DNA from: an uncultured Burkholderiales bacterium
GTDB lineage: Bacteria > Vulcanimicrobiota > Xenobia > Xenobiales > Xenobiaceae
Assembly (NCBI GenBank): GCA_964595195.1
Contig: CAZQPM010000075.1
Location: 1 to 13,842, forward strand
Direction of reading: 5' to 3'
DNA length: 13,842 bases
The notes under the pieces are model-generated. The model made no database searches. It was not told the DNA's origin and saw only the letters and a program-made list of their open reading frames with translations. The first letter of the stretch is position 1. Every line of letters begins with the position of its first letter. Made by a program: the position numbers and the translations under genes. Below, piece by piece: positions 1,393 through 9,681 of the stretch.

Positions 1393-3495
1393 TCAGCGGG
1401 ACTCGGCCACCGCCTTGGCCTGGCCCAGGGGCAGTTCGCCCAGACCCAGGCTGCCAGCCGCTTCCAGAAGCTTCTGCAGGCCCGCCTTCTCGGGCCCCTG
1501 ACTGCGGGCCACCAGGAGGCCCAGGGCCGCCGACAGGGTCAGGCTCTGCAGGTCCCCGGCCGAGAGAGCGGGATGGGAGAGCACCTCCTTGAGGTCCTGC
1601 GGGAGGCTGCGCCCCCCTTCCAGATACTCCGCCGCCAGGTTCCGGGCCACCTGGCTGCGCCCCACGAAGCCGTCCATGGCCTTGCCCAGCGAGACGGCGC
1701 TGAACATCTTGTCCATGAAGGCGCCGTCCCCGCCCACGATATCGATCCTGGCGTTCTTGAAGGCCTCGCCCATCACGTGGGCCTGGTGCTCGGCCACGCC
1801 CAGACGGGTCCTCAGTTCCTCCAAAGCGATCAGGCGCTCGTTCTCCAGGCGCAGGCGATACTCTTCATGACCGCGGCTGGCCTCGTTGAGGGCTGCCATG
1901 GCCTGGGCCTTCTCGGCCAGACCCTTGGCCTCGCCGGTCAGCCTCAGCTCGATGGCGTCGGCCTCGGCTCGAGCCCGTTCCCGCAGCACGGTGACATCGG
2001 CCAGGCCCAGTTTCTCCTGAGCCGGGGCCTTGGCTTCCTGCACCCGGACCTCGGCCATGCCCTGCTTCTCGAAGGCGGCCGCCTGGGCTTCCTGCACCCG
2101 GGCCTCGGCCAGGCCGGGGGCGGCGGTCTCGGCCTGCACGCCCTCGGCCAGGCGGATCTTGGCGGCAGCCGCGCGGTCGGCGGACTGCTGCTCGGCCTCG
2201 GCCAGGGTCAGCATCTCCTTGGAGCGCAGCCGCGAGACCGCCTCGGCGGCCTCGGCCCGACGGATCTCCTTGGCCGCCGCCTCCTCGGCCTCGGCCTGGG
2301 CGGCGATCACGGCGGCCTCCTTCAGGCGGCGGGCCTCCTCGACGACGCGCACGCCCTTGATGCGCTCCTCCTCCTCGGCCACGGTCTTCTCGACGGCCAC
2401 GCGCTCGCGGATGACCTCCTGGATGTTCTTGCGCTGCTCCTCGAGGTCGCGCTCCTTGGCGATGCGCTGCAACTCGACCTCGCGCTCGCGGGCCACGGCC
2501 TCCAGGTCCCTCTCGCGGGTCACCCGCTCCTGCTCGACGGCGATCACCCGCTCGCGGTTCTTCTCGGCCACCTGAACCTCGCGCATCTTGTTCTGTTCCT
2601 GCACGGACAGTTCTTCGTCGGTCTTGATCCGGGCGGTCTCGGAGCGCAGCCTCTCCTCGGCCTGCACCTTCTCGGTCTCGGCCTGCTCGCGGGCCCGCAC
2701 CGTGGCGATCTCGCGATCCTTGCGGGCCTCGGCGTCGGCCTTCTGCCGTTCCAGGTCGAAGATCAGGGCGGCGGCCTCCACGTCCTGTTTGGTGATCTGC
2801 TTCTTGCGGGTGTTCTCCCACTCGTTGGTGCGGATGTGCTCCTGGGCGGTCAACTCGGTGATCTTCTTGATGCCCTGGGCGTCCAGGATGTTCTCGGGGT
2901 CCAGGTTGGAGAGCGGCGTCTGCTCGAGGTGGTCGATGGCCGCGTCCTCCAGGTAGTAGCCGTTCAGGTGGCGACCGATGACCTCGATGATCGCGTCGCG
3001 GAACTTCTCGCGCTGGGTGTAGAGGTCCTCGAAGTCCATCTGCTTGCCCACCGTCTTGAGGGCCTCGGAGAACTTGGCGGCGAAGAGCCGGTCCAGGGTC
3101 TCGGGGTCGCTGGCCCGACGGCAGCCGATATTCTGGGCCACCTGGATCACGTCTTCCTTGGTCTTGTTGACGCGCACGAAGAAGGTGACCCGGATGTCCG
3201 CCCGGATGTTGTCCTTGCAGATCAGCCCCTCCTTGCCGCGGCGGTCGATATCCACCGTGCGCACCGACAGGTCCATGAACTCGGCCTTGTGCCAGATGGG
3301 GAAGACCCAGCCCCCGGTGAAGGTCACCTCGGGGTCCTTGCCGCGCTTGTTGACGATCAGGGCCTGACCCTGCTCGACCAGGATCAGCACGTTGCTGACC
3401 CAGCGGCGGAAGAGGGTCCAGACCAGGGGAATCCCCACCGCCAAGGCGACCAGGATGACCCCCCAGGTAGCGTAGGACTTCAGGGATTCAAGCAC
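1393..3495 (-). CDS. floT: Flotillin-family SPFH/band-7 membrane protein (FloT/YqiK-like), 700 aa, with an unusually long E/A/R-rich coiled-coil (flotillin EA-repeat) region.
   Basis: There is a GTG start at 3495 with a GGAGG 9 nt upstream on the - strand. The N-terminal transmembrane helix is YATWGVILVALAVGIPLVW. The SPFH core reads ALIVNKRGKDPEVTFTGGWVFPIWHKAEFMDLSVRTVDIDRRGKEGLICKDNIRADIRVTFFVRV. A long AEAR/VQEA-type coiled coil follows, then a C-terminal flotillin-like tail. The stop is at 1393-1395. Confidence 0.9.
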   Translation of the reverse strand: MLESLKSYATWGVILVALAVGIPLVWTLFRRWVSNVLILVEQGQALIVNKRGKDPEVTFTGGWVFPIWHKAEFMDLSVRTVDIDRRGKEGLICKDNIRADIRVTFFVRVNKTKEDVIQVAQNIGCRRASDPETLDRLFAAKFSEALKTVGKQMDFEDLYTQREKFRDAIIEVIGRHLNGYYLEDAAIDHLEQTPLSNLDPENILDAQGIKKITELTAQEHIRTNEWENTRKKQITKQDVEAAALIFDLERQKADAEARKDREIATVRAREQAETEKVQAEERLRSETARIKTDEELSVQEQNKMREVQVAEKNRERVIAVEQERVTRERDLEAVAREREVELQRIAKERDLEEQRKNIQEVIRERVAVEKTVAEEEERIKGVRVVEEARRLKEAAVIAAQAEAEEAAAKEIRRAEAAEAVSRLRSKEMLTLAEAEQQSADRAAAAKIRLAEGVQAETAAPGLAEARVQEAQAAAFEKQGMAEVRVQEAKAPAQEKLGLADVTVLRERARAEADAIELRLTGEAKGLAEKAQAMAALNEASRGHEEYRLRLENERLIALEELRTRLGVAEHQAHVMGEAFKNARIDIVGGDGAFMDKMFSAVSLGKAMDGFVGRSQVARNLAAEYLEGGRSLPQDLKEVLSHPALSAGDLQSLTLSAALGLLVARSQGPEKAGLQKLLEAAGSLGLGELPLGQAKAVAESR
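2030..2114. repeat. Imperfect 31-nt direct repeat with a 54-nt (18-codon) period inside the flotillin coiled-coil coding region.
   Basis: ttggcttcctgcacccggacctcggccatgc (2030-2060) and tgggcttcctgcacccgggcctcggccaggc (2084-2114) differ at 3 positions. On the - strand they encode GMAEVRVQEAK / GLAEARVQEAQ. The gcctcggcc motif recurs many times across 1900-2400. Confidence 0.8.
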
Positions 3496-5024: not shown

Positions 5025-6242
5025 ATGCAGGACCTCTACGTCGACCTGCACGTGCACATCGGCCGCAACGGCCAGGGCCGGCCCGTCAAGATCACCGCCA
5101 GCCGGCGCCTGACCTTCGCGGCCGTGATCCGCGAGTGCCGCGAGCGCAAGGGCCTGGACATGGTCGGCGTCATCGACTGCGCCTGCACCGGGGTCCTGCA
5201 GGATCTGCGGAAACTGATCGACCAGGGCGAGCTGCTGGAGTTGCCCGAGGGCGGCCTGCGCCACCGAGGGCGGGTCACCGTCGTGGCAGGTGCCGAGGTG
5301 GAGGCCGTCGAGGAGTCCGGGGGCGTCTCACACCACCTGTGCTACTTCCCGTACCTCCGCAACCTGGCCGAGTTCTCCCGGGTCATGTCCGGCTACATCA
5401 CGAACATGGAGCTCTCCTCCCAGCGCTGCGGCCTGCCGGCCCGCGAACTGGCGGCCGTGGTCCATTCCACCGGAGGTATCCTGGTCCCGGCCCACGCCTT
5501 CACTCCCCACAAGAGCGTCTACGGGAACGCGTGCGACCGCCTGGCGGACCTGCTGGGGTCAGGCTGGGAGCAGGTGTCGGCGCTGGAGTTGGGCCTGTCC
5601 GCCGACTCGGCGCTGGCCGACCATCTGCCCGAGCTGGCCGGGGTGACCCTCCTGTCCAACTCCGACGCCCACTCTCCGGAGAGGATCGGCCGGGAGTACA
5701 ACGTGATCCGCATGGAGGCCCCCAACTATCGCGAGCTGGTGCTGGCCCTGCACCGGACCGCGGGCCGCCGGGTGGTGGCCAACTACGGTCTGGACCCGCG
5801 CCTGGGCCGCTACCACCGCTCGTTCTGCACGGTCTGCGAGGCGCCCGTCACGGCCCCTCCCCCGGTGCTGGCCTGCCCCCGATGCGGCGCCGCCGACAAG
5901 CGCTTCGTGCGCGGCGTCCTGGACCGGGTCCGCTCGCTGGCCGGGCGCCAGGGCCCCGAATCGCCCGAGCACCGCCCCCCCTACCGCTACCAGGTGCCGC
6001 TGAGCTTCGTGCCCGGGCTGAGCCGGGCTGGCCTGAACCGCCTGATCGCGCGCTTCGGCAGCGAGATGGCGGTGCTGCATCAGGCCCGGCCAGAGGAGAT
6101 GGCCAGCCTGGTGGGCTGGGAGGTGGCGCGCTCGATCGGGGAAGCCCGCGAGGGCCGCCTCAACCTGGAGGCCGGGGGTGGCGGCCACTACGGCAGGGTC
6201 GCGGCCGGGCCTCACCGCGGGGAGCAGTTGGGCCTGTTCTGA
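5025..6242 (+). CDS. Endonuclease Q (EndoQ) family protein (TIGR00375 / PHP-like fold), 405 aa. It is a predicted endonuclease that nicks DNA 5' of deoxyuridine, hypoxanthine or abasic sites.
   Basis: The ATG at 5025 lies 8 nt after the permease stop. The protein aligns motif by motif with Pyrococcus furiosus EndoQ: DLHVHIG (Pfu DLHIHS), HHLCYFP (HHLLIFP), PAHAFTP (identical), LELGLSADSALAD (LELGLSADSDMAD), LSNSDAHSP (identical), GLDPRLGRYH (GLDPRLGKYH), a zinc finger CTVCE-x13-CPRCG (C..C...CPKCGG), DRPPY (identical) and GGGGHYG (GGGGKYG). The real start is internal to the 859-aa ORF 3663..6242. Confidence 0.85.
   Translation: MQDLYVDLHVHIGRNGQGRPVKITASRRLTFAAVIRECRERKGLDMVGVIDCACTGVLQDLRKLIDQGELLELPEGGLRHRGRVTVVAGAEVEAVEESGGVSHHLCYFPYLRNLAEFSRVMSGYITNMELSSQRCGLPARELAAVVHSTGGILVPAHAFTPHKSVYGNACDRLADLLGSGWEQVSALELGLSADSALADHLPELAGVTLLSNSDAHSPERIGREYNVIRMEAPNYRELVLALHRTAGRRVVANYGLDPRLGRYHRSFCTVCEAPVTAPPPVLACPRCGAADKRFVRGVLDRVRSLAGRQGPESPEHRPPYRYQVPLSFVPGLSRAGLNRLIARFGSEMAVLHQARPEEMASLVGWEVARSIGEAREGRLNLEAGGGGHYGRVAAGPHRGEQLGLF
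6225..6239 (+). other. C-terminal pentapeptide QLGLF of EndoQ, a candidate beta sliding-clamp (DnaN) binding motif.
   Basis: The last five codons before the TGA are cag ttg ggc ctg ttc. This fits the bacterial clamp-binding consensus QL[SD]LF / QLxLF, located at the extreme C-terminus as in Pol IV and Pol II. Archaeal EndoQ carries a C-terminal PIP box for PCNA at the equivalent position. Confidence 0.4.
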
Positions 6243-6267: not shown

Positions 6268-6684
6268 TCAGGACTCCAGGTAGCGCATCACGTCCGCGGG
6301 ATACTCGACGTGGTAGACCAGGGAAAGGGTGTGACCCGTCAGGGTGCTGGCCCGGGGCACCAGGTTCTGCTCTTCCAGAATCATCGAGAAGTAGCGGCGC
6401 AGCCGGCGCCCCAGGGCCGTGTTGGCGGTCTGCACGTGGTAGCGCACGGGCTTCAGGCCGTGGATGTGCAGGGTCACCTCCTGCTGGAGCCGCCCGATCG
6501 TGGCGTACATCTGGATCCGGGAGTTCGAGCGCTGGCGAGCGCACACCACGAAGCGGGGAGGCTGGGCCTCGCGGGCATTCAGGAATTCGACCAGGCGGTG
6601 CAGGATCTTCAGGAAGTGCTCCTCGGCACGAGTGAACCGGAAGAAGGTCTGCTCGAACCGGTGCATCTGCTCGGCCTCGAACAT
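6268..6684 (-). CDS. Hypothetical cytoplasmic protein, 138 aa, His-rich. It lies immediately downstream of the DtxR-family regulator (7-nt gap).
   Basis: The start was chosen at the internal ATG 6684 (MFEAEQMHRFEQTFFRF...) with a GGAGG 13 nt upstream. Before that Met, the ORF's in-frame N-terminal extension would overlap the DtxR tail. The stop is TGA at 6268-6270. The protein has no transmembrane segment. It has many His residues (MHRF, EEHF, ILHRL, TLHIHGL, RYHV, GHTL, YHVEY) and no recognisable family from sequence alone. Confidence 0.5.
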   Translation of the reverse strand: MFEAEQMHRFEQTFFRFTRAEEHFLKILHRLVEFLNAREAQPPRFVVCARQRSNSRIQMYATIGRLQQEVTLHIHGLKPVRYHVQTANTALGRRLRRYFSMILEEQNLVPRASTLTGHTLSLVYHVEYPADVMRYLES

Positions 6685-6691
6685 CGGGACG

Positions 6692-7447
6692 CTACGACCT
6701 CCGCACACGGGCAGCCCGGACGGCCCGGGCCCTCCGGTTCTGTGAGCCCTCGAGGCGCTCATCTGCCAGCCAGGGTCGCCCCAGGTTCGCCAGAGCCGGC
6801 CGGACGGCCACCTTACCGGCAACCTCGCGGCTCAGGGGAAAGGACTTGTCGTCCACCGACACCAGCAGGGGGCCATCGAAGGGCGCCACCTGCTCGACGG
6901 TGACCCGCTGACCGGGCCACAGGCCGACCTCGACCAGATAGTCGACCAACTCCACCGAGCCCTCCTTGACCCGCTCGATCACCACCTGCTGCCCCGCCAG
7001 GACCGAGGCCAGGGGCCAGGCGTCCTGCAGGTCGATGTGGCCCGCGCGGTCGGGGATGGGCTGCCCGTGCGGACAGGTCTTGGGGTGCCCCAGGAAGTCG
7101 TCCAGAGCGTCGGCCACCTCATCGGAGAGGATGTGCTCCAGCTTGCAGGCCTGGTCATAGGCGTGGGCCCAGGGAATCCCCAGTCGGTCCACCAGCAACC
7201 TCTCGGCCAGGCGATGCTTGCGGATCACGTTCAGGACGATCCGCTCGCCTTCGCGAGTCAACTGCAGAGCCCGGGAATTCTTGACGATCAGTCCCTTCTC
7301 GTGCAGTTTGCGGACCATCTCGGTGACCGAAACGGCGCTGACCCCCAGGCGTTCAGCCAGGCGGACGTTGGCCGGCACGACCTCACCCTCCTCGGAGAGA
7401 CGATAGATCGTGAGAAGATACATCTGGACGGATTCGGAAACGGACAC
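6692..7447 (-). CDS. DtxR/IdeR/MntR-family metal-dependent transcriptional repressor with a C-terminal SH3-like (FeoA-like) domain.
   Basis: The N-terminal HTH and metal-binding core is (VSVSESVQ)[47 protein letters not shown]...[57 protein letters not shown], which parallels M. tuberculosis IdeR (TEMYLRTIY..., [18 protein letters not shown]...EACRWEHVMSEDVE). The start is either GTG 7447 (GAGGG 5-6 nt upstream) or ATG 7423. The upstream 130 aa of ORF 6692..7819 are an artefact. The stop is TAG at 6692-6694, and there is an Arg-rich C-terminal tail. Confidence 0.85.
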
Positions 7448-7663
7448 TTCAACCCTCAGGGCCGGGATTTCGCGTTGGTTCCCAAGTCTTCCTGGCCCTC
7501 CCGCGGGCGGAGATTTCCCGGTTGCCGCCGACCCCTCCGGGTGGAGGACTCTTCTTCCCCATGACAGAAACAAGGTGCCCAAGACGCCGGGCCAGCGGGT
7601 CTGCCCCCCAGGGAATCGGTGGGGTCCACCTCGCCCGGCGACGCAACGCGATCGGGAGACCCC
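7448..7663. promoter_or_regulatory. Divergent intergenic region between the DtxR-family regulator (-) and the metallophosphoesterase (+). It contains a repeated GGGATTTCGCG / GGAGATTTCCCGG element.
   Basis: This is a 216-nt non-coding gap. The GATTTC-containing elements sit at about 7464-7474 and 7505-7517. A short palindrome TTGG-ttc-CCAA lies at about 7476-7486. The phosphoesterase ribosome-binding site GGGAG is at 7654-7658. Confidence 0.35.
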
Positions 7664-8752
7664 ATGGACCCCCAGAGCCCCTCCAACAGCCCGTTCGGAC
7701 CGACGGAGAATCCAGCCAGCCCGGAGCCCGGCGAACAGGCCCCACTTCGGCGCAAGCTGCTGGCCATCGGCGATCTCCACGGCGACTACCACCGTCTGCT
7801 GCGCCATCTGCGCGAGCACCAGTTGCTGTTCGAGGATACCCTGGCCTGGAACCCCGAGCAGGACAACGTCGACCTGGTGCTGATCGGCGACTACGTCGAC
7901 TGGCGCGGCGAACCCCTGGAGGAGCCCACCGACCAGTCACCGGAACTGCCCGAAGCCGGGCCCCGGCGAATCCTGGAACTGCTGATGCACCTGGACGAAG
8001 AACTGGAGAAGCTGCGAGGCGCCATCCCGGGCTTCGCCAGCCAGCTCTACGCGCTCCTGGGCAACCACGACGAGATGATGCTGGATGCCGTCGGGGTCTT
8101 CGACTTCCTGCACGTCGAACAGCTCGAGGAGGTCCTGGGCCGGGCCCGCAACTTCGCCGCGGTGAAGCGTCACATGGCCGAAAGGGGCCTGAACGCCGAC
8201 CAACTCGAACGCGTCATGCGCTTCATGAACTGGTACGTCCAGGGAGGCGAGCAGACGGCCAAGGGATTCGGCGGTCTGGTGGCCTGGAAGGAGGCCATGG
8301 ATCGCGACCTGGGCCGCTTCCTGCGGACCCGCCTGCGGCTGGGAGTGGTGGTCGACCACCGCCTCTTCGCCCACACGATCCCGGACCAGCGCAAGTTCTG
8401 GAGACCGCTGGAGGAGATCGTCGCACTCCCCGACAACGAGTTCCGCTCGGCTCGCGAGTCCTTCCTGTGGAGCCGGAAGATCTGGGGCTTCGACTACTAT
8501 ACAGGGATGCGCACGAATCCCTTCTCGGACAAGGAGCTCGACGAGATGCTGGGACGCCTGGGCGTTCGCGGCCTGGTGGTCGGGCACACGCCTCTCACCC
8601 GTGGCCAGGAGTACGTGGTGGCCTACGGAGGCAAGGTGATCAACCTGGACGTGCACGGCACGCCGGGGGCCGCGGCCCTGGTCGAGGAGTACGTGCCCTC
8701 CGAGAACAGCTCCCGGGCCCCCCTGCGGATCCAGGTCCAGGGTTCGAAGTGA
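7664..8752 (+). CDS. Calcineurin-like metallophosphoesterase (PPP/ApaH-like Ser/Thr phosphatase or bis-nucleoside tetraphosphatase-like), 362 aa, with a Ser/Pro-rich N-terminal tail.
   Basis: The ATG at 7664 has a GGGAG 5 nt upstream. The alternative GTG at 7619 lacks a ribosome-binding site. The motifs are GDLHGDY (GDxHG), GDYVDWRG (GDxVDRG-like), GNHDE (GNH[DE]), VVGHTP (GH) and DVHGT. The stop TGA at 8750-8752 overlaps the next start. Confidence 0.85.
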
Positions 8753-9681
8753 AGGAGATCCAGGAACTCAGCCAGCGGGTGCTGGCCAACGTCGAGAAGG
8801 TCATCCTGGGCAAGCACGAGGAGATCCGCTTGGTCCTGGTCGCCCTGCTGTGCGAGGGCCACGTGCTGCTGGAGGATGTCCCGGGAGTCGGCAAGACCAT
8901 GCTGAGCCGCGCCGTGGCCCGTTCGCTGGGCTGCTCCTTCGCCCGGCTCCAGTGCACCCCGGATCTCCTGCCGTCAGACCTCCTGGGTGTGACCATCTAC
9001 AACCAGAAGTCGATGGACTTCGAGTTCCGCCCCGGGCCGGTCTTCCACCAGGTGCTGCTGGCCGACGAGATCAACCGGGCCACGCCCAAGACCCAGTCGG
9101 CCCTCCTGGAAAGCATGGACGAGCGTCAGGTGACCACCGAAGGGGTGGCCCGCCCCCTGCCCCGCCCCTTCCTGGTGATGGCCACCCAGAATCCCATCGA
9201 GTACGAGGGCACCTTCCCCCTGCCCGAGGCCCAGTTGGACCGCTTCCTGCTGAGGATCCGCCTGGGCTATCCCTCGTTCGAGGCCGAGACCGAGATGCTG
9301 GTCTCCCAGCAGCACCACCATCCGATCGAGGACCTGGACCAGGTCGTCGCCGGCCCCGAACTGCAGCGCATGCAGGCCATGGTCCACGAGGTGGAGGTGG
9401 AGGAATCCCTGCGCCACTACATCGTGCGCCTGGTCCAGGCGACCCGGGAGGCCGACCGGCTCTTCCTGGGCGCCAGCCCCCGGGGCAGCCAGGCCCTGTT
9501 CCGGGCGGCCCAGGCCCTGGCCGCCATGGAGGGTCGCCGCTACGTGCTGCCCGACGACATCAAGGCCCTGGCGATCCCGGCGCTTTCCCACCGGATGATC
9601 TCCCGGACGGATGGGGTCGGCGGCCGGGCCGCCGTCGAGGTCCTGCAGGGCCTGCTGGACCGACTGCCGGTCCCGGTCTAG
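8749..9681 (+). CDS. moxR: MoxR-family AAA+ ATPase (AAA_3 / COG0714), 310 aa.
   Basis: The GTG start at 8749 overlaps the upstream stop (GTGA). The N-terminus [61 protein letters not shown] is the typical MoxR start. Walker A is PGVGKT, Walker B is [10 protein letters not shown] and sensor 1 is ATQNP. The length is typical for MoxR. The upstream part of ORF 7522..9681 is in another frame over the phosphoesterase and is an artefact. Confidence 0.9.

Follow-up and report, generated by a model that had tools for sequence, protein, structure and literature searches.

A candidate β-clamp-binding motif at the C-terminus of endonuclease Q from an Eremiobacterota-like bacterium

Endonuclease Q (EndoQ) nicks DNA immediately 5′ of deoxyuridine (dU), deoxyinosine (dI), deoxyxanthosine (dX), or abasic (AP) sites, as shown for the enzymes of Pyrococcus furiosus, Thermococcus kodakarensis, Methanosarcina acetivorans, and Bacillus pumilus. 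The enzymes of T. kodakarensis and P. furiosus bind the sliding clamp PCNA via a C-terminal PCNA-interacting protein (PIP) box, and PCNA stimulates both enzymes; the dissociation constant (KD) of the archaeal EndoQ-PCNA pair is 55 nM, and stimulation of nicking depends on both the PIP box and the PCNA ring (Shiraishi et al. 2016, Sci Rep 6:25532, PMC4858679). The two boxes read QRSITEFL (T. kodakarensis) and QRTLLQYI (P. furiosus). In the same work β-clamp consensus sequences were stated to lie at the C-termini of bacterial EndoQ; Supplementary Figure S1 lists putative motifs in 44 bacterial homologs, with QL[D/S]LF as the consensus and QLGLF given for Caldilinea aerophila and Haliangium ochraceum, and a binding test of the predicted interaction was asked for (PMC4858679). 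Here, we consider a stretch of 13,842 nt (contig CAZQPM010000075.1 of assembly GCA_964595195.1, in the following called the window) from an uncultured bacterium assigned to the Xenobia, in which the gene for a bacterial EndoQ ends with the codons for precisely this pentapeptide, QLGLF. An earlier reading made from the letters of the window alone (the sequence-only reading) took the pentapeptide for a link to the bacterial clamp, DnaN, that had not been described before. Its premise, binding of archaeal EndoQ to PCNA through a C-terminal PIP box, agrees with the published work (PMC4858679); its claim to novelty fails, because the same prediction for bacterial EndoQ, likewise based on sequence, was published in 2016.

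The EndoQ of the window has in common with the homologs listed in 2016 the family, the C-terminal position of the peptide, the consensus, and the proposal of a clamp interaction paralleling that of PIP box and PCNA, likewise a prediction only. The list differs in that it is without Eremiobacterota/Xenobia and Armatimonadota, in that most of its entries are 940–1,240 aa long compared to roughly 400 aa here, and in that neither tail-less forms nor the QLxLPG[LIVM] variants described below were reported. The bacterial “EndoQ homologs” of 940–1,240 aa in the list still end with QLxLF and are presumably fused to another large module; two long homologs encountered in our searches (P0247 and P0248, 819–903 aa) end in PIP-like strings. 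Compared to its archaeal counterparts, the window protein is an orthologous enzyme with the presumed clamp peptide at the very C-terminus, behind a disordered linker; while the archaeal PIP box comprises eight residues (Q-x-x-h-x-x-a-a) on a tail of 25–40 residues and engages trimeric PCNA, the clamp-binding motif (CBM) of the window protein comprises five residues on a linker of roughly 10, and its presumed partner is dimeric DnaN.

Two further systems are instructive. DNA polymerase II of Escherichia coli carries a C-terminal CBM (...TLMTGQLGLF) with a KD of 1.7 μM, which has been crystallised on the clamp (PDB 3D1E; PMC11139829). It is identical to the peptide of the window in sequence and in its location at the extreme C-terminus after a small or flexible residue, but belongs to an unrelated B-family polymerase, so the identity indicates competence for a clamp of the E. 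coli type and not binding to the clamp of the organism considered here. The second system is NucS/EndoMS, a repair endonuclease which, like EndoQ, is shared by Archaea and Bacteria and has a PIP tail in the former and a DnaN-binding tail in the Actinobacteria. The C-terminal DnaN motif of bacterial NucS/EndoMS binds with a KD of about 185 nM, DnaN stimulates cleavage, and deletion of the motif raises the mutation rate. Unlike EndoQ, NucS/EndoMS is a RecB-like mismatch endonuclease with another fold and substrate; it sets a mechanistic precedent without being related. Neither EndoQ nor NucS is mentioned in the β-clamp review PMC11139829.

The sequence-only reading had located QLGLF at 6225–6239, at the end of EndoQ, which is exact: the codons CAG TTG GGC CTG TTC on the + strand encode Q401-L-G-L-F405, and the TGA stop codon (6240–6242) follows directly. 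The position of the stop is no artefact, because homologs with 88–90% identity (P0002 and P0003) have identical ends. Canonical CBMs have the form Q-φ-x-[L/M]-[F/L] or Q-φ-x-[L/M]-x-[F/L]; the tightest binders are QLxLF and QLxLxF, position 3 is free, and much of the affinity is contributed by the Gln (PMC11139829). Residues 401–405 conform to this consensus, and the match to the bacterial DnaN pentapeptide QLxLF at the extreme C-terminus, as it had first been noticed, is therefore borne out. The window protein does not match the PIP octapeptide, Q-x-x-[L/I/M]-x-x-[F/Y/W]-[F/Y/W/L/I]; PIP spacing is impossible here, because no more than five residues, counted from the Gln itself, are left before the stop.

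By prediction, QLGLF lies in an accessible, disordered terminus. In the AlphaFold2 model of the protein, the per-residue confidence (pLDDT) drops from 85 (residues 381–390) to 68 (391–400) and 55 (401–405); no secondary structure is predicted beyond residue 392, and the alignment to the P. furiosus enzyme (PfuEndoQ) stops at 393. Homolog comparison and pLDDT delimit a variable linker, RVAAGPHRGE (aa 391–400; 6195–6224, +), between the fold and the motif. PfuEndoQ beyond residue 400 has been called disordered and was deleted for crystallisation (PMC5961232), and the disordered C-terminal region carries the PCNA-binding PIP box (PMC4858679). Since the PIP box is thus held by the disordered segment behind the Pfu fold, the tails of the two proteins are at equivalent positions.

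Conservation of the tail was assessed with 120 homologs of 51–100% identity obtained from a search of 5.8 billion proteins, 119 of which could be anchored on the sequence GGGGxYG at the end of the fold. QLxLF is present in 57 of the 119, a relaxed pentamer, Q[LMIV]x[LMIF][FLIMV], in 20, a hexamer pattern (QLxLxF/L or QLxFxF, for example QLSLDF or QLTFSF) in 19, and QLxLPG[LIVM] or a close variant (one with Q at the G position) in 16; three have [DE]ELxLxF/L, that is, Glu in place of Gln, two have divergent Q-L strings (QLILTI, QLTIGF), and two are without a motif, one of these being truncated to a tail of five residues. The motif or a close variant is hence retained in all but about five of the homologs. 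Strict matches to Q[LMIV]x[LMIF][FLIMV] were observed in 77 tails, compared to 2 on average and at most 8 in 1,000 shuffles of the same tails. The linker from the anchor to the Gln, in turn, measures 8–13 residues and is poorly conserved in sequence; such a pattern, in which Q-L-x-L-F stays fixed and the neighbouring linker drifts, is what selection on a short linear motif would be expected to leave. Information content per position was also calculated, from sequences aligned on the pattern matches themselves, so that its values at the motif positions are partly circular and the raw C-termini and the shuffle test are preferred. The motif ends at the final residue in 63 of the 96 proteins of penta- or hexamer type and one or two residues short of the end in 26 more. 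Of the two points that the sequence-only reading had put up for checking, whether QLxLF is conserved and whether it is always terminal among orthologs, conservation holds in the clade of at least 51% identity; strict terminality does not, nor does the motif extend to the whole family. In P0005 and its cluster (Candidatus Xenobium, 81% identical), for example, QLPLF is near-terminal and followed by nine residues, PAEPAQERS. P0009, whose label is that of an archaeon (“Candidatus Nitrosotenuis sp.”), shares 75% identity with the window protein and has the bacterial-type QLALFA at its end, pointing to misbinning of the contig or to a transfer in very recent times.

A C-terminus might read QLGLF by chance, the motif being only five residues long and Leu being abundant in proteomes of high G+C content (that of the window is 69%). 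With the amino-acid composition of the window genes, however, the probability of a C-terminal QLxLF is about 3e-6, corresponding to about 0.01 per 4,000 proteins, the excess over shuffled tails is as given above, and 44 other homologs were found independently to have such motifs; we regard a chance match as ruled out by the conservation statistics, with a residual probability that is negligible. Given the CBM match, the predicted flexibility of the tail, its conservation within the clade, the identity to the Pol II peptide, and the precedents of archaeal EndoQ and NucS, the QLGLF tail of EndoQ is probably a short linear motif for the binding of DnaN.

Conservation proves selection but not the identity of the partner, and the tail could be a linear motif for another partner or process, such as a C-terminal hydrophobic degron, a protease tag, or a docking site for a lineage-specific repair partner. 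Noncanonical forms within the clade, namely QLxLPG[LIVM], [DE]ELSLxF, and ...ESLF, would fit such an explanation. On the other hand, the positions that are conserved are those which define CBMs (Gln at position 1, an aliphatic residue at 2, position 3 free, Leu or Met at 4, and Phe or Leu at 5 or 6), the pentapeptide is the same as that of Pol II, a clamp ligand proven by crystallography, and the archaeal ortholog uses the equivalent position of its tail for its own clamp. With regard to a degron, no known C-terminal degron requires, to our knowledge, a Gln four residues upstream. Because the constrained positions define CBMs and the peptide equals a proven clamp ligand, a partner other than the clamp is disfavoured and appears unlikely. 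The constrained and free positions of the EndoQ tails agree with the CBM definition, and most variants fall within the known pentameric and hexameric classes.

Among the remaining variants is a heptamer, Q-[LM]-x-[LI]-P-G-[LIVM], which EndoQs of the Armatimonadota/WS1 type have instead of QLxLF and which is followed by one or two residues, with a longer extension in L008. It was found in three proteins of the genome set (L005, L006, and L008) and, in the homolog set, in P0073, P0086, P0089, P0095, P0097, P0100, P0103, P0106, P0108, P0111, P0112, P0116 (with Q at the G position), P0117, P0119, and P0120. QLxLPG[LIVM] resembles QLSLPL of Hda and QLVLGL of Pol IV with one extra residue, which places it outside the canonical penta- and hexamer definitions. 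Two Atribacterota proteins, L003 and L004, end with ...PQGLSGSLF and ...NKVYESLF, respectively; they keep a terminal SLF but have no Gln at the canonical position.

A number of results weigh against clamp binding as a function of bacterial EndoQ. Some members of the clade depart from the canonical motif, by Gln-to-Glu exchange, by a final Val or Ile, by the QLxLPGh form (h, hydrophobic), or by ...SLF without Gln. Beyond the clade, a wide set of 103 full-length matches (at least 340 aa; roughly 30–50% identity) was drawn from 1.84 billion representatives of 50%-identity clusters. Most bacterial representatives (P0121–P0269) stop 3–12 residues past GGGGxYG and have no motif: 78 of the 103 have a tail of at most 12 residues past the anchor without the motif, 10 a longer tail without it, and 9 a long PIP-like tail (QKSLFEF, QRSLFEFI, QKTLKEF, and others), these being confined to a separate, archaeal-like group of homologs; a bacterial CBM is found once (P0122, QMSLF), and in five the anchor was not found. 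In a separate scan of named genomes, the EndoQs translated from Bacillota (Clostridia, Paenibacillus, Halanaerobium, Thermincola, and Tepidanaerobacteraceae) are all tail-less among the matches listed (L009–L080); the listing consists mostly of Clostridia and is of uneven taxonomic breadth. The only bacterial EndoQ characterised biochemically, that of B. pumilus, is from the same phylum, the inspected Bacillota being other members of it. As most representatives of 35–50% identity and the inspected Bacillota are without the tail, the motif is dispensable for the enzyme family as such, and any view of it as a general property of bacterial EndoQ has to be given up. No experimental test of clamp binding by any bacterial EndoQ was found in the full-text literature searched, the coverage of which was incomplete, or among the top-ranked EndoQ papers since 2021. 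As to the enzyme itself, the window protein scores 251.3 bits against the NCBIfam model TIGR00375, a hypothetical equivalog model (E = 2e-74; profile positions 17–374 of 374 covered), and does not reach the curated equivalog cut-off of 326.6 bits; yet the match runs from end to end and close homologs carry the NCBI name “endonuclease Q family protein”, so that the protein is filed as a member of the EndoQ family and not as an equivalog of the TIGR00375 seeds. Finally, the neighbours of endoQ within the window (genes for an NCS2 permease, a DtxR-like repressor, a MoxR ATPase, a Glu/Gln-tRNA synthetase, Dus, and a flotillin-like protein) include no repair or replication gene and no dnaN, and the genomic context is therefore uninformative for a link to the clamp.

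Among the genome matches listed, the motif is present in Vulcanimicrobiota (Eremiobacterota), Armatimonadia, WS1, and two unnamed metagenome-assembled genomes (MAGs). A neighbour-joining tree was computed from 165 catalytic domains. P0122 aside, the motif-bearing proteins in it, 58 in number, all lie in one clade of 60 leaves, the remaining two of which are Atribacterota proteins; the sister of this clade is a tail-less group of Clostridia and Thermincola, and the PIP-bearing sequences cluster apart. The tree is midpoint-rooted and was not bootstrapped, the stem leading to the CBM clade is short (0.015), and lineages represented in the list of Shiraishi et al. (Thermodesulfovibrio, Dictyoglomus, Geobacter, the candidate phyla radiation (CPR), and the proteins of 940–1,240 aa) are left out; for these reasons it is taken as a lean toward convergence and not as proof of it. 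Within the sampled sequences, then, the motif appears limited to a single clade comprising Eremiobacterota, Armatimonadota, WS1, and relatives, which adds to the prediction of 2016.

The sequence-only reading had spoken of a convergent re-wiring of EndoQ onto the bacterial clamp. The nesting of the CBM clade among tail-less bacterial forms leans toward this, that is, toward a tail gained independently within Bacteria and convergent with the archaeal PIP box; such re-wiring is not established by an unbootstrapped tree, and the clamp-binding tail may instead have been inherited and retuned. A fuller scenario, in which the CBM tail was newly gained in one clade (Eremiobacterota, Armatimonadota, WS1, and Atribacterota) from tail-less ancestors, so that clamp tethering was acquired at least twice (PIP in Archaea, CBM in Bacteria), and later diversified to noncanonical forms such as the seven-residue Q-L-x-L-P-G-[LIVM] of Armatimonadota/WS1, is tentative and to our mind rather doubtful. 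More doubtful still is the idea that the tail derives from an archaeal PIP box which came in by horizontal transfer and is now, as a relic, functionless or weakly functional in Bacteria. The position of the tail is homologous to that of the archaeal PIP tail, the Gln anchor is common to both, and 8-mer strings such as QLELSLRF in a few bacterial members resemble a PIP box. However, the retention of Q, L, L, and F across 51–100% identity while the linker randomises would be unexpected for a functionless peptide, the bacterial spacing is Q-L-x-L-F and not Q-x-x-h-x-x-a-a, and the nearest relatives of the CBM clade in the tree are tail-less bacterial forms, not PIP-bearing ones, all of which makes a relic highly improbable.

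If the tail does bind DnaN, QLGLF, carried by a flexible linker of about 10 residues, would insert into the hydrophobic cleft between domains II and III of DnaN. Docking of this kind would hold EndoQ at clamps loaded on DNA that has just been replicated or repaired, and this tethering might stimulate nicking 5′ of dU, dI, or AP sites as PCNA does for archaeal EndoQ; both binding to DnaN by the motif and stimulation of nicking by binding are proposed by analogy to the archaeal enzyme and NucS. The nick might then be processed further by other clients of the clamp, Pol I and ligase for example, which is speculation.

The window protein is an endonuclease Q composed of a PHP nuclease domain, a C4 zinc finger, and a helical DNA-binding domain. 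In a phmmer search of PDB sequences PfuEndoQ (5zb8 and 7k30–7k33) was the only match (E about 1e-48), residues 25–393 of the window protein aligning to 5zb8 with E = 3.5e-48. The AlphaFold2 model, built from an alignment of 78 sequences, has a mean pLDDT of 94.4, and Foldseek superimposes it on 5zb8 and 7k30 with template modelling (TM) scores of 0.82–0.83 and a root-mean-square deviation of about 3 Å; the next-best matches are generic PHP phosphoesterases with TM scores of about 0.35. The lesion pocket and metal site of PfuEndoQ comprise His139, Thr142, Glu167, Leu168, Gly169, Leu170, Asn191, and Asp193, and its C4 zinc finger Cys249, Cys252, Cys268, and Cys271 (PMC5961232). In the phmmer alignment the former correspond to H157, T160, E188, L189, G190, L191, N212, and D214 of the window protein and the latter to C268, C271, C284, and C287, and all of them are invariant or at least 90% conserved in our two alignments of homologs (A1 and A2). 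Because fold, pocket, metal-site, and zinc-finger residues are kept, the enzyme appears catalytically intact, and we infer that it shares the substrate range of the characterised EndoQs, nicking just 5′ of dU, dI, and AP sites. Its closest named relatives are from Candidatus Xenobium and Xenobia, within the Eremiobacterota.

The gene, endoQ, encodes an endonuclease Q/TIGR00375-family protein of 405 aa plus stop at 5025–6242 on the + strand, from an ATG at 5025 to the TGA at 6240–6242, an assignment based on the open reading frame (ORF) and its start codon, phmmer, TIGR00375, the AlphaFold2 model, and Foldseek. The PHP nuclease domain (about aa 1–257; 5025–5795) was recognised by its metal and lesion-pocket residues in alignments A1 and A2; the set D7, H9, H11, E91, H103, H157, T160, E188–L191, N212, D214, and H216 is invariant or nearly so in both. 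The Zn-binding domain (about aa 258–324; 5796–5996, +) contains the C4 zinc finger identified by alignment to the Pfu cysteines; C268, C271, and C284 are invariant in A1 and A2, and C287 is the one that is at least 90% conserved. The C-terminal helical domain (about aa 325–390; 5997–6194, +), assigned by alignment to Pfu residues 304–381, has helices at 334–375 and short strands in the AlphaFold2 model and closes with the hairpin G384-G-G-G-H-Y-G390, of which G384, G387, and G390 are invariant. The variable linker and the C-terminal pentapeptide, the latter a predicted CBM on account of its sequence and its conservation in the clade, complete the protein.

A second string, the internal QVPLSF (aa 323–328), formally fits the hexameric CBM; it was rejected as a linear motif, as it lies in a fold of high confidence and is conserved in tail-less forms. 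The region (about 5988–6023, aa 322–333) reads YQVPLSFVPGLS and continues into a helix-hairpin-helix (HhH)-like PGxG. Q[VI]PLxF[VI]PG[LIV]G is kept in tail-less and motif-bearing bacterial EndoQs alike, the PIP-bearing archaeal-like ones having I[IA]PLAEII, and Foldseek gives weak local matches of the model to the (HhH)2 domains of UvrC, XPF, and FAAP24. The QVPLSF segment is probably structural or DNA-binding and not a clamp motif.

Upstream of endoQ, its ATG lying 9 nt past the stop codon of this gene, is the NCS2-family permease gene (Xan_ur_permease in Pfam, E = 1e-37). The ORFs downstream are 6268–6822 (−), 6692–7819 (−), and 7522–9681 (+); endoQ is followed after 25 nt by the end of a convergent ORF for which Pfam has no match, and the genes past this ORF code for an iron repressor of the DtxR/IdeR type, with a FeoA domain, and for a MoxR (AAA_3) ATPase. 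Elsewhere in the window, an ORF of 700 aa at 1393–3495 (−) has no Pfam match even at E = 0.01; it is SPFH/flotillin-like, with an N-terminal transmembrane segment, a band-7-like core, and a very long coiled coil rich in E, A, R, and K.

With the idea of a clamp motif in print since 2016, its presence here will not surprise specialists, and the window offers one more clear example, in a short form of 405 aa from an Eremiobacterota-like MAG. The restriction to one clade and the absence from the inspected Bacillota make a motif-bearing ortholog preferable for work on clamp coupling, and natural variants are at hand in QLxLxF, QLxLPGh, and ...SLF; the map of the clade and these variants are the most useful outputs of the analysis. 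Should noncanonical forms such as Q-L-x-L-P-G-[LIVM] indeed have arisen by diversification of a clamp-binding tail, they would extend the known repertoire of clamp motifs. Binding of the tail to DnaN, if real, would place EndoQ beside NucS/EndoMS among the repair nucleases whose clamp peptide is switched between Archaea and Bacteria; it would also link the cutting of DNA at deaminated bases to replication or repair synthesis in little-studied phyla such as the Eremiobacterota and Armatimonadota.

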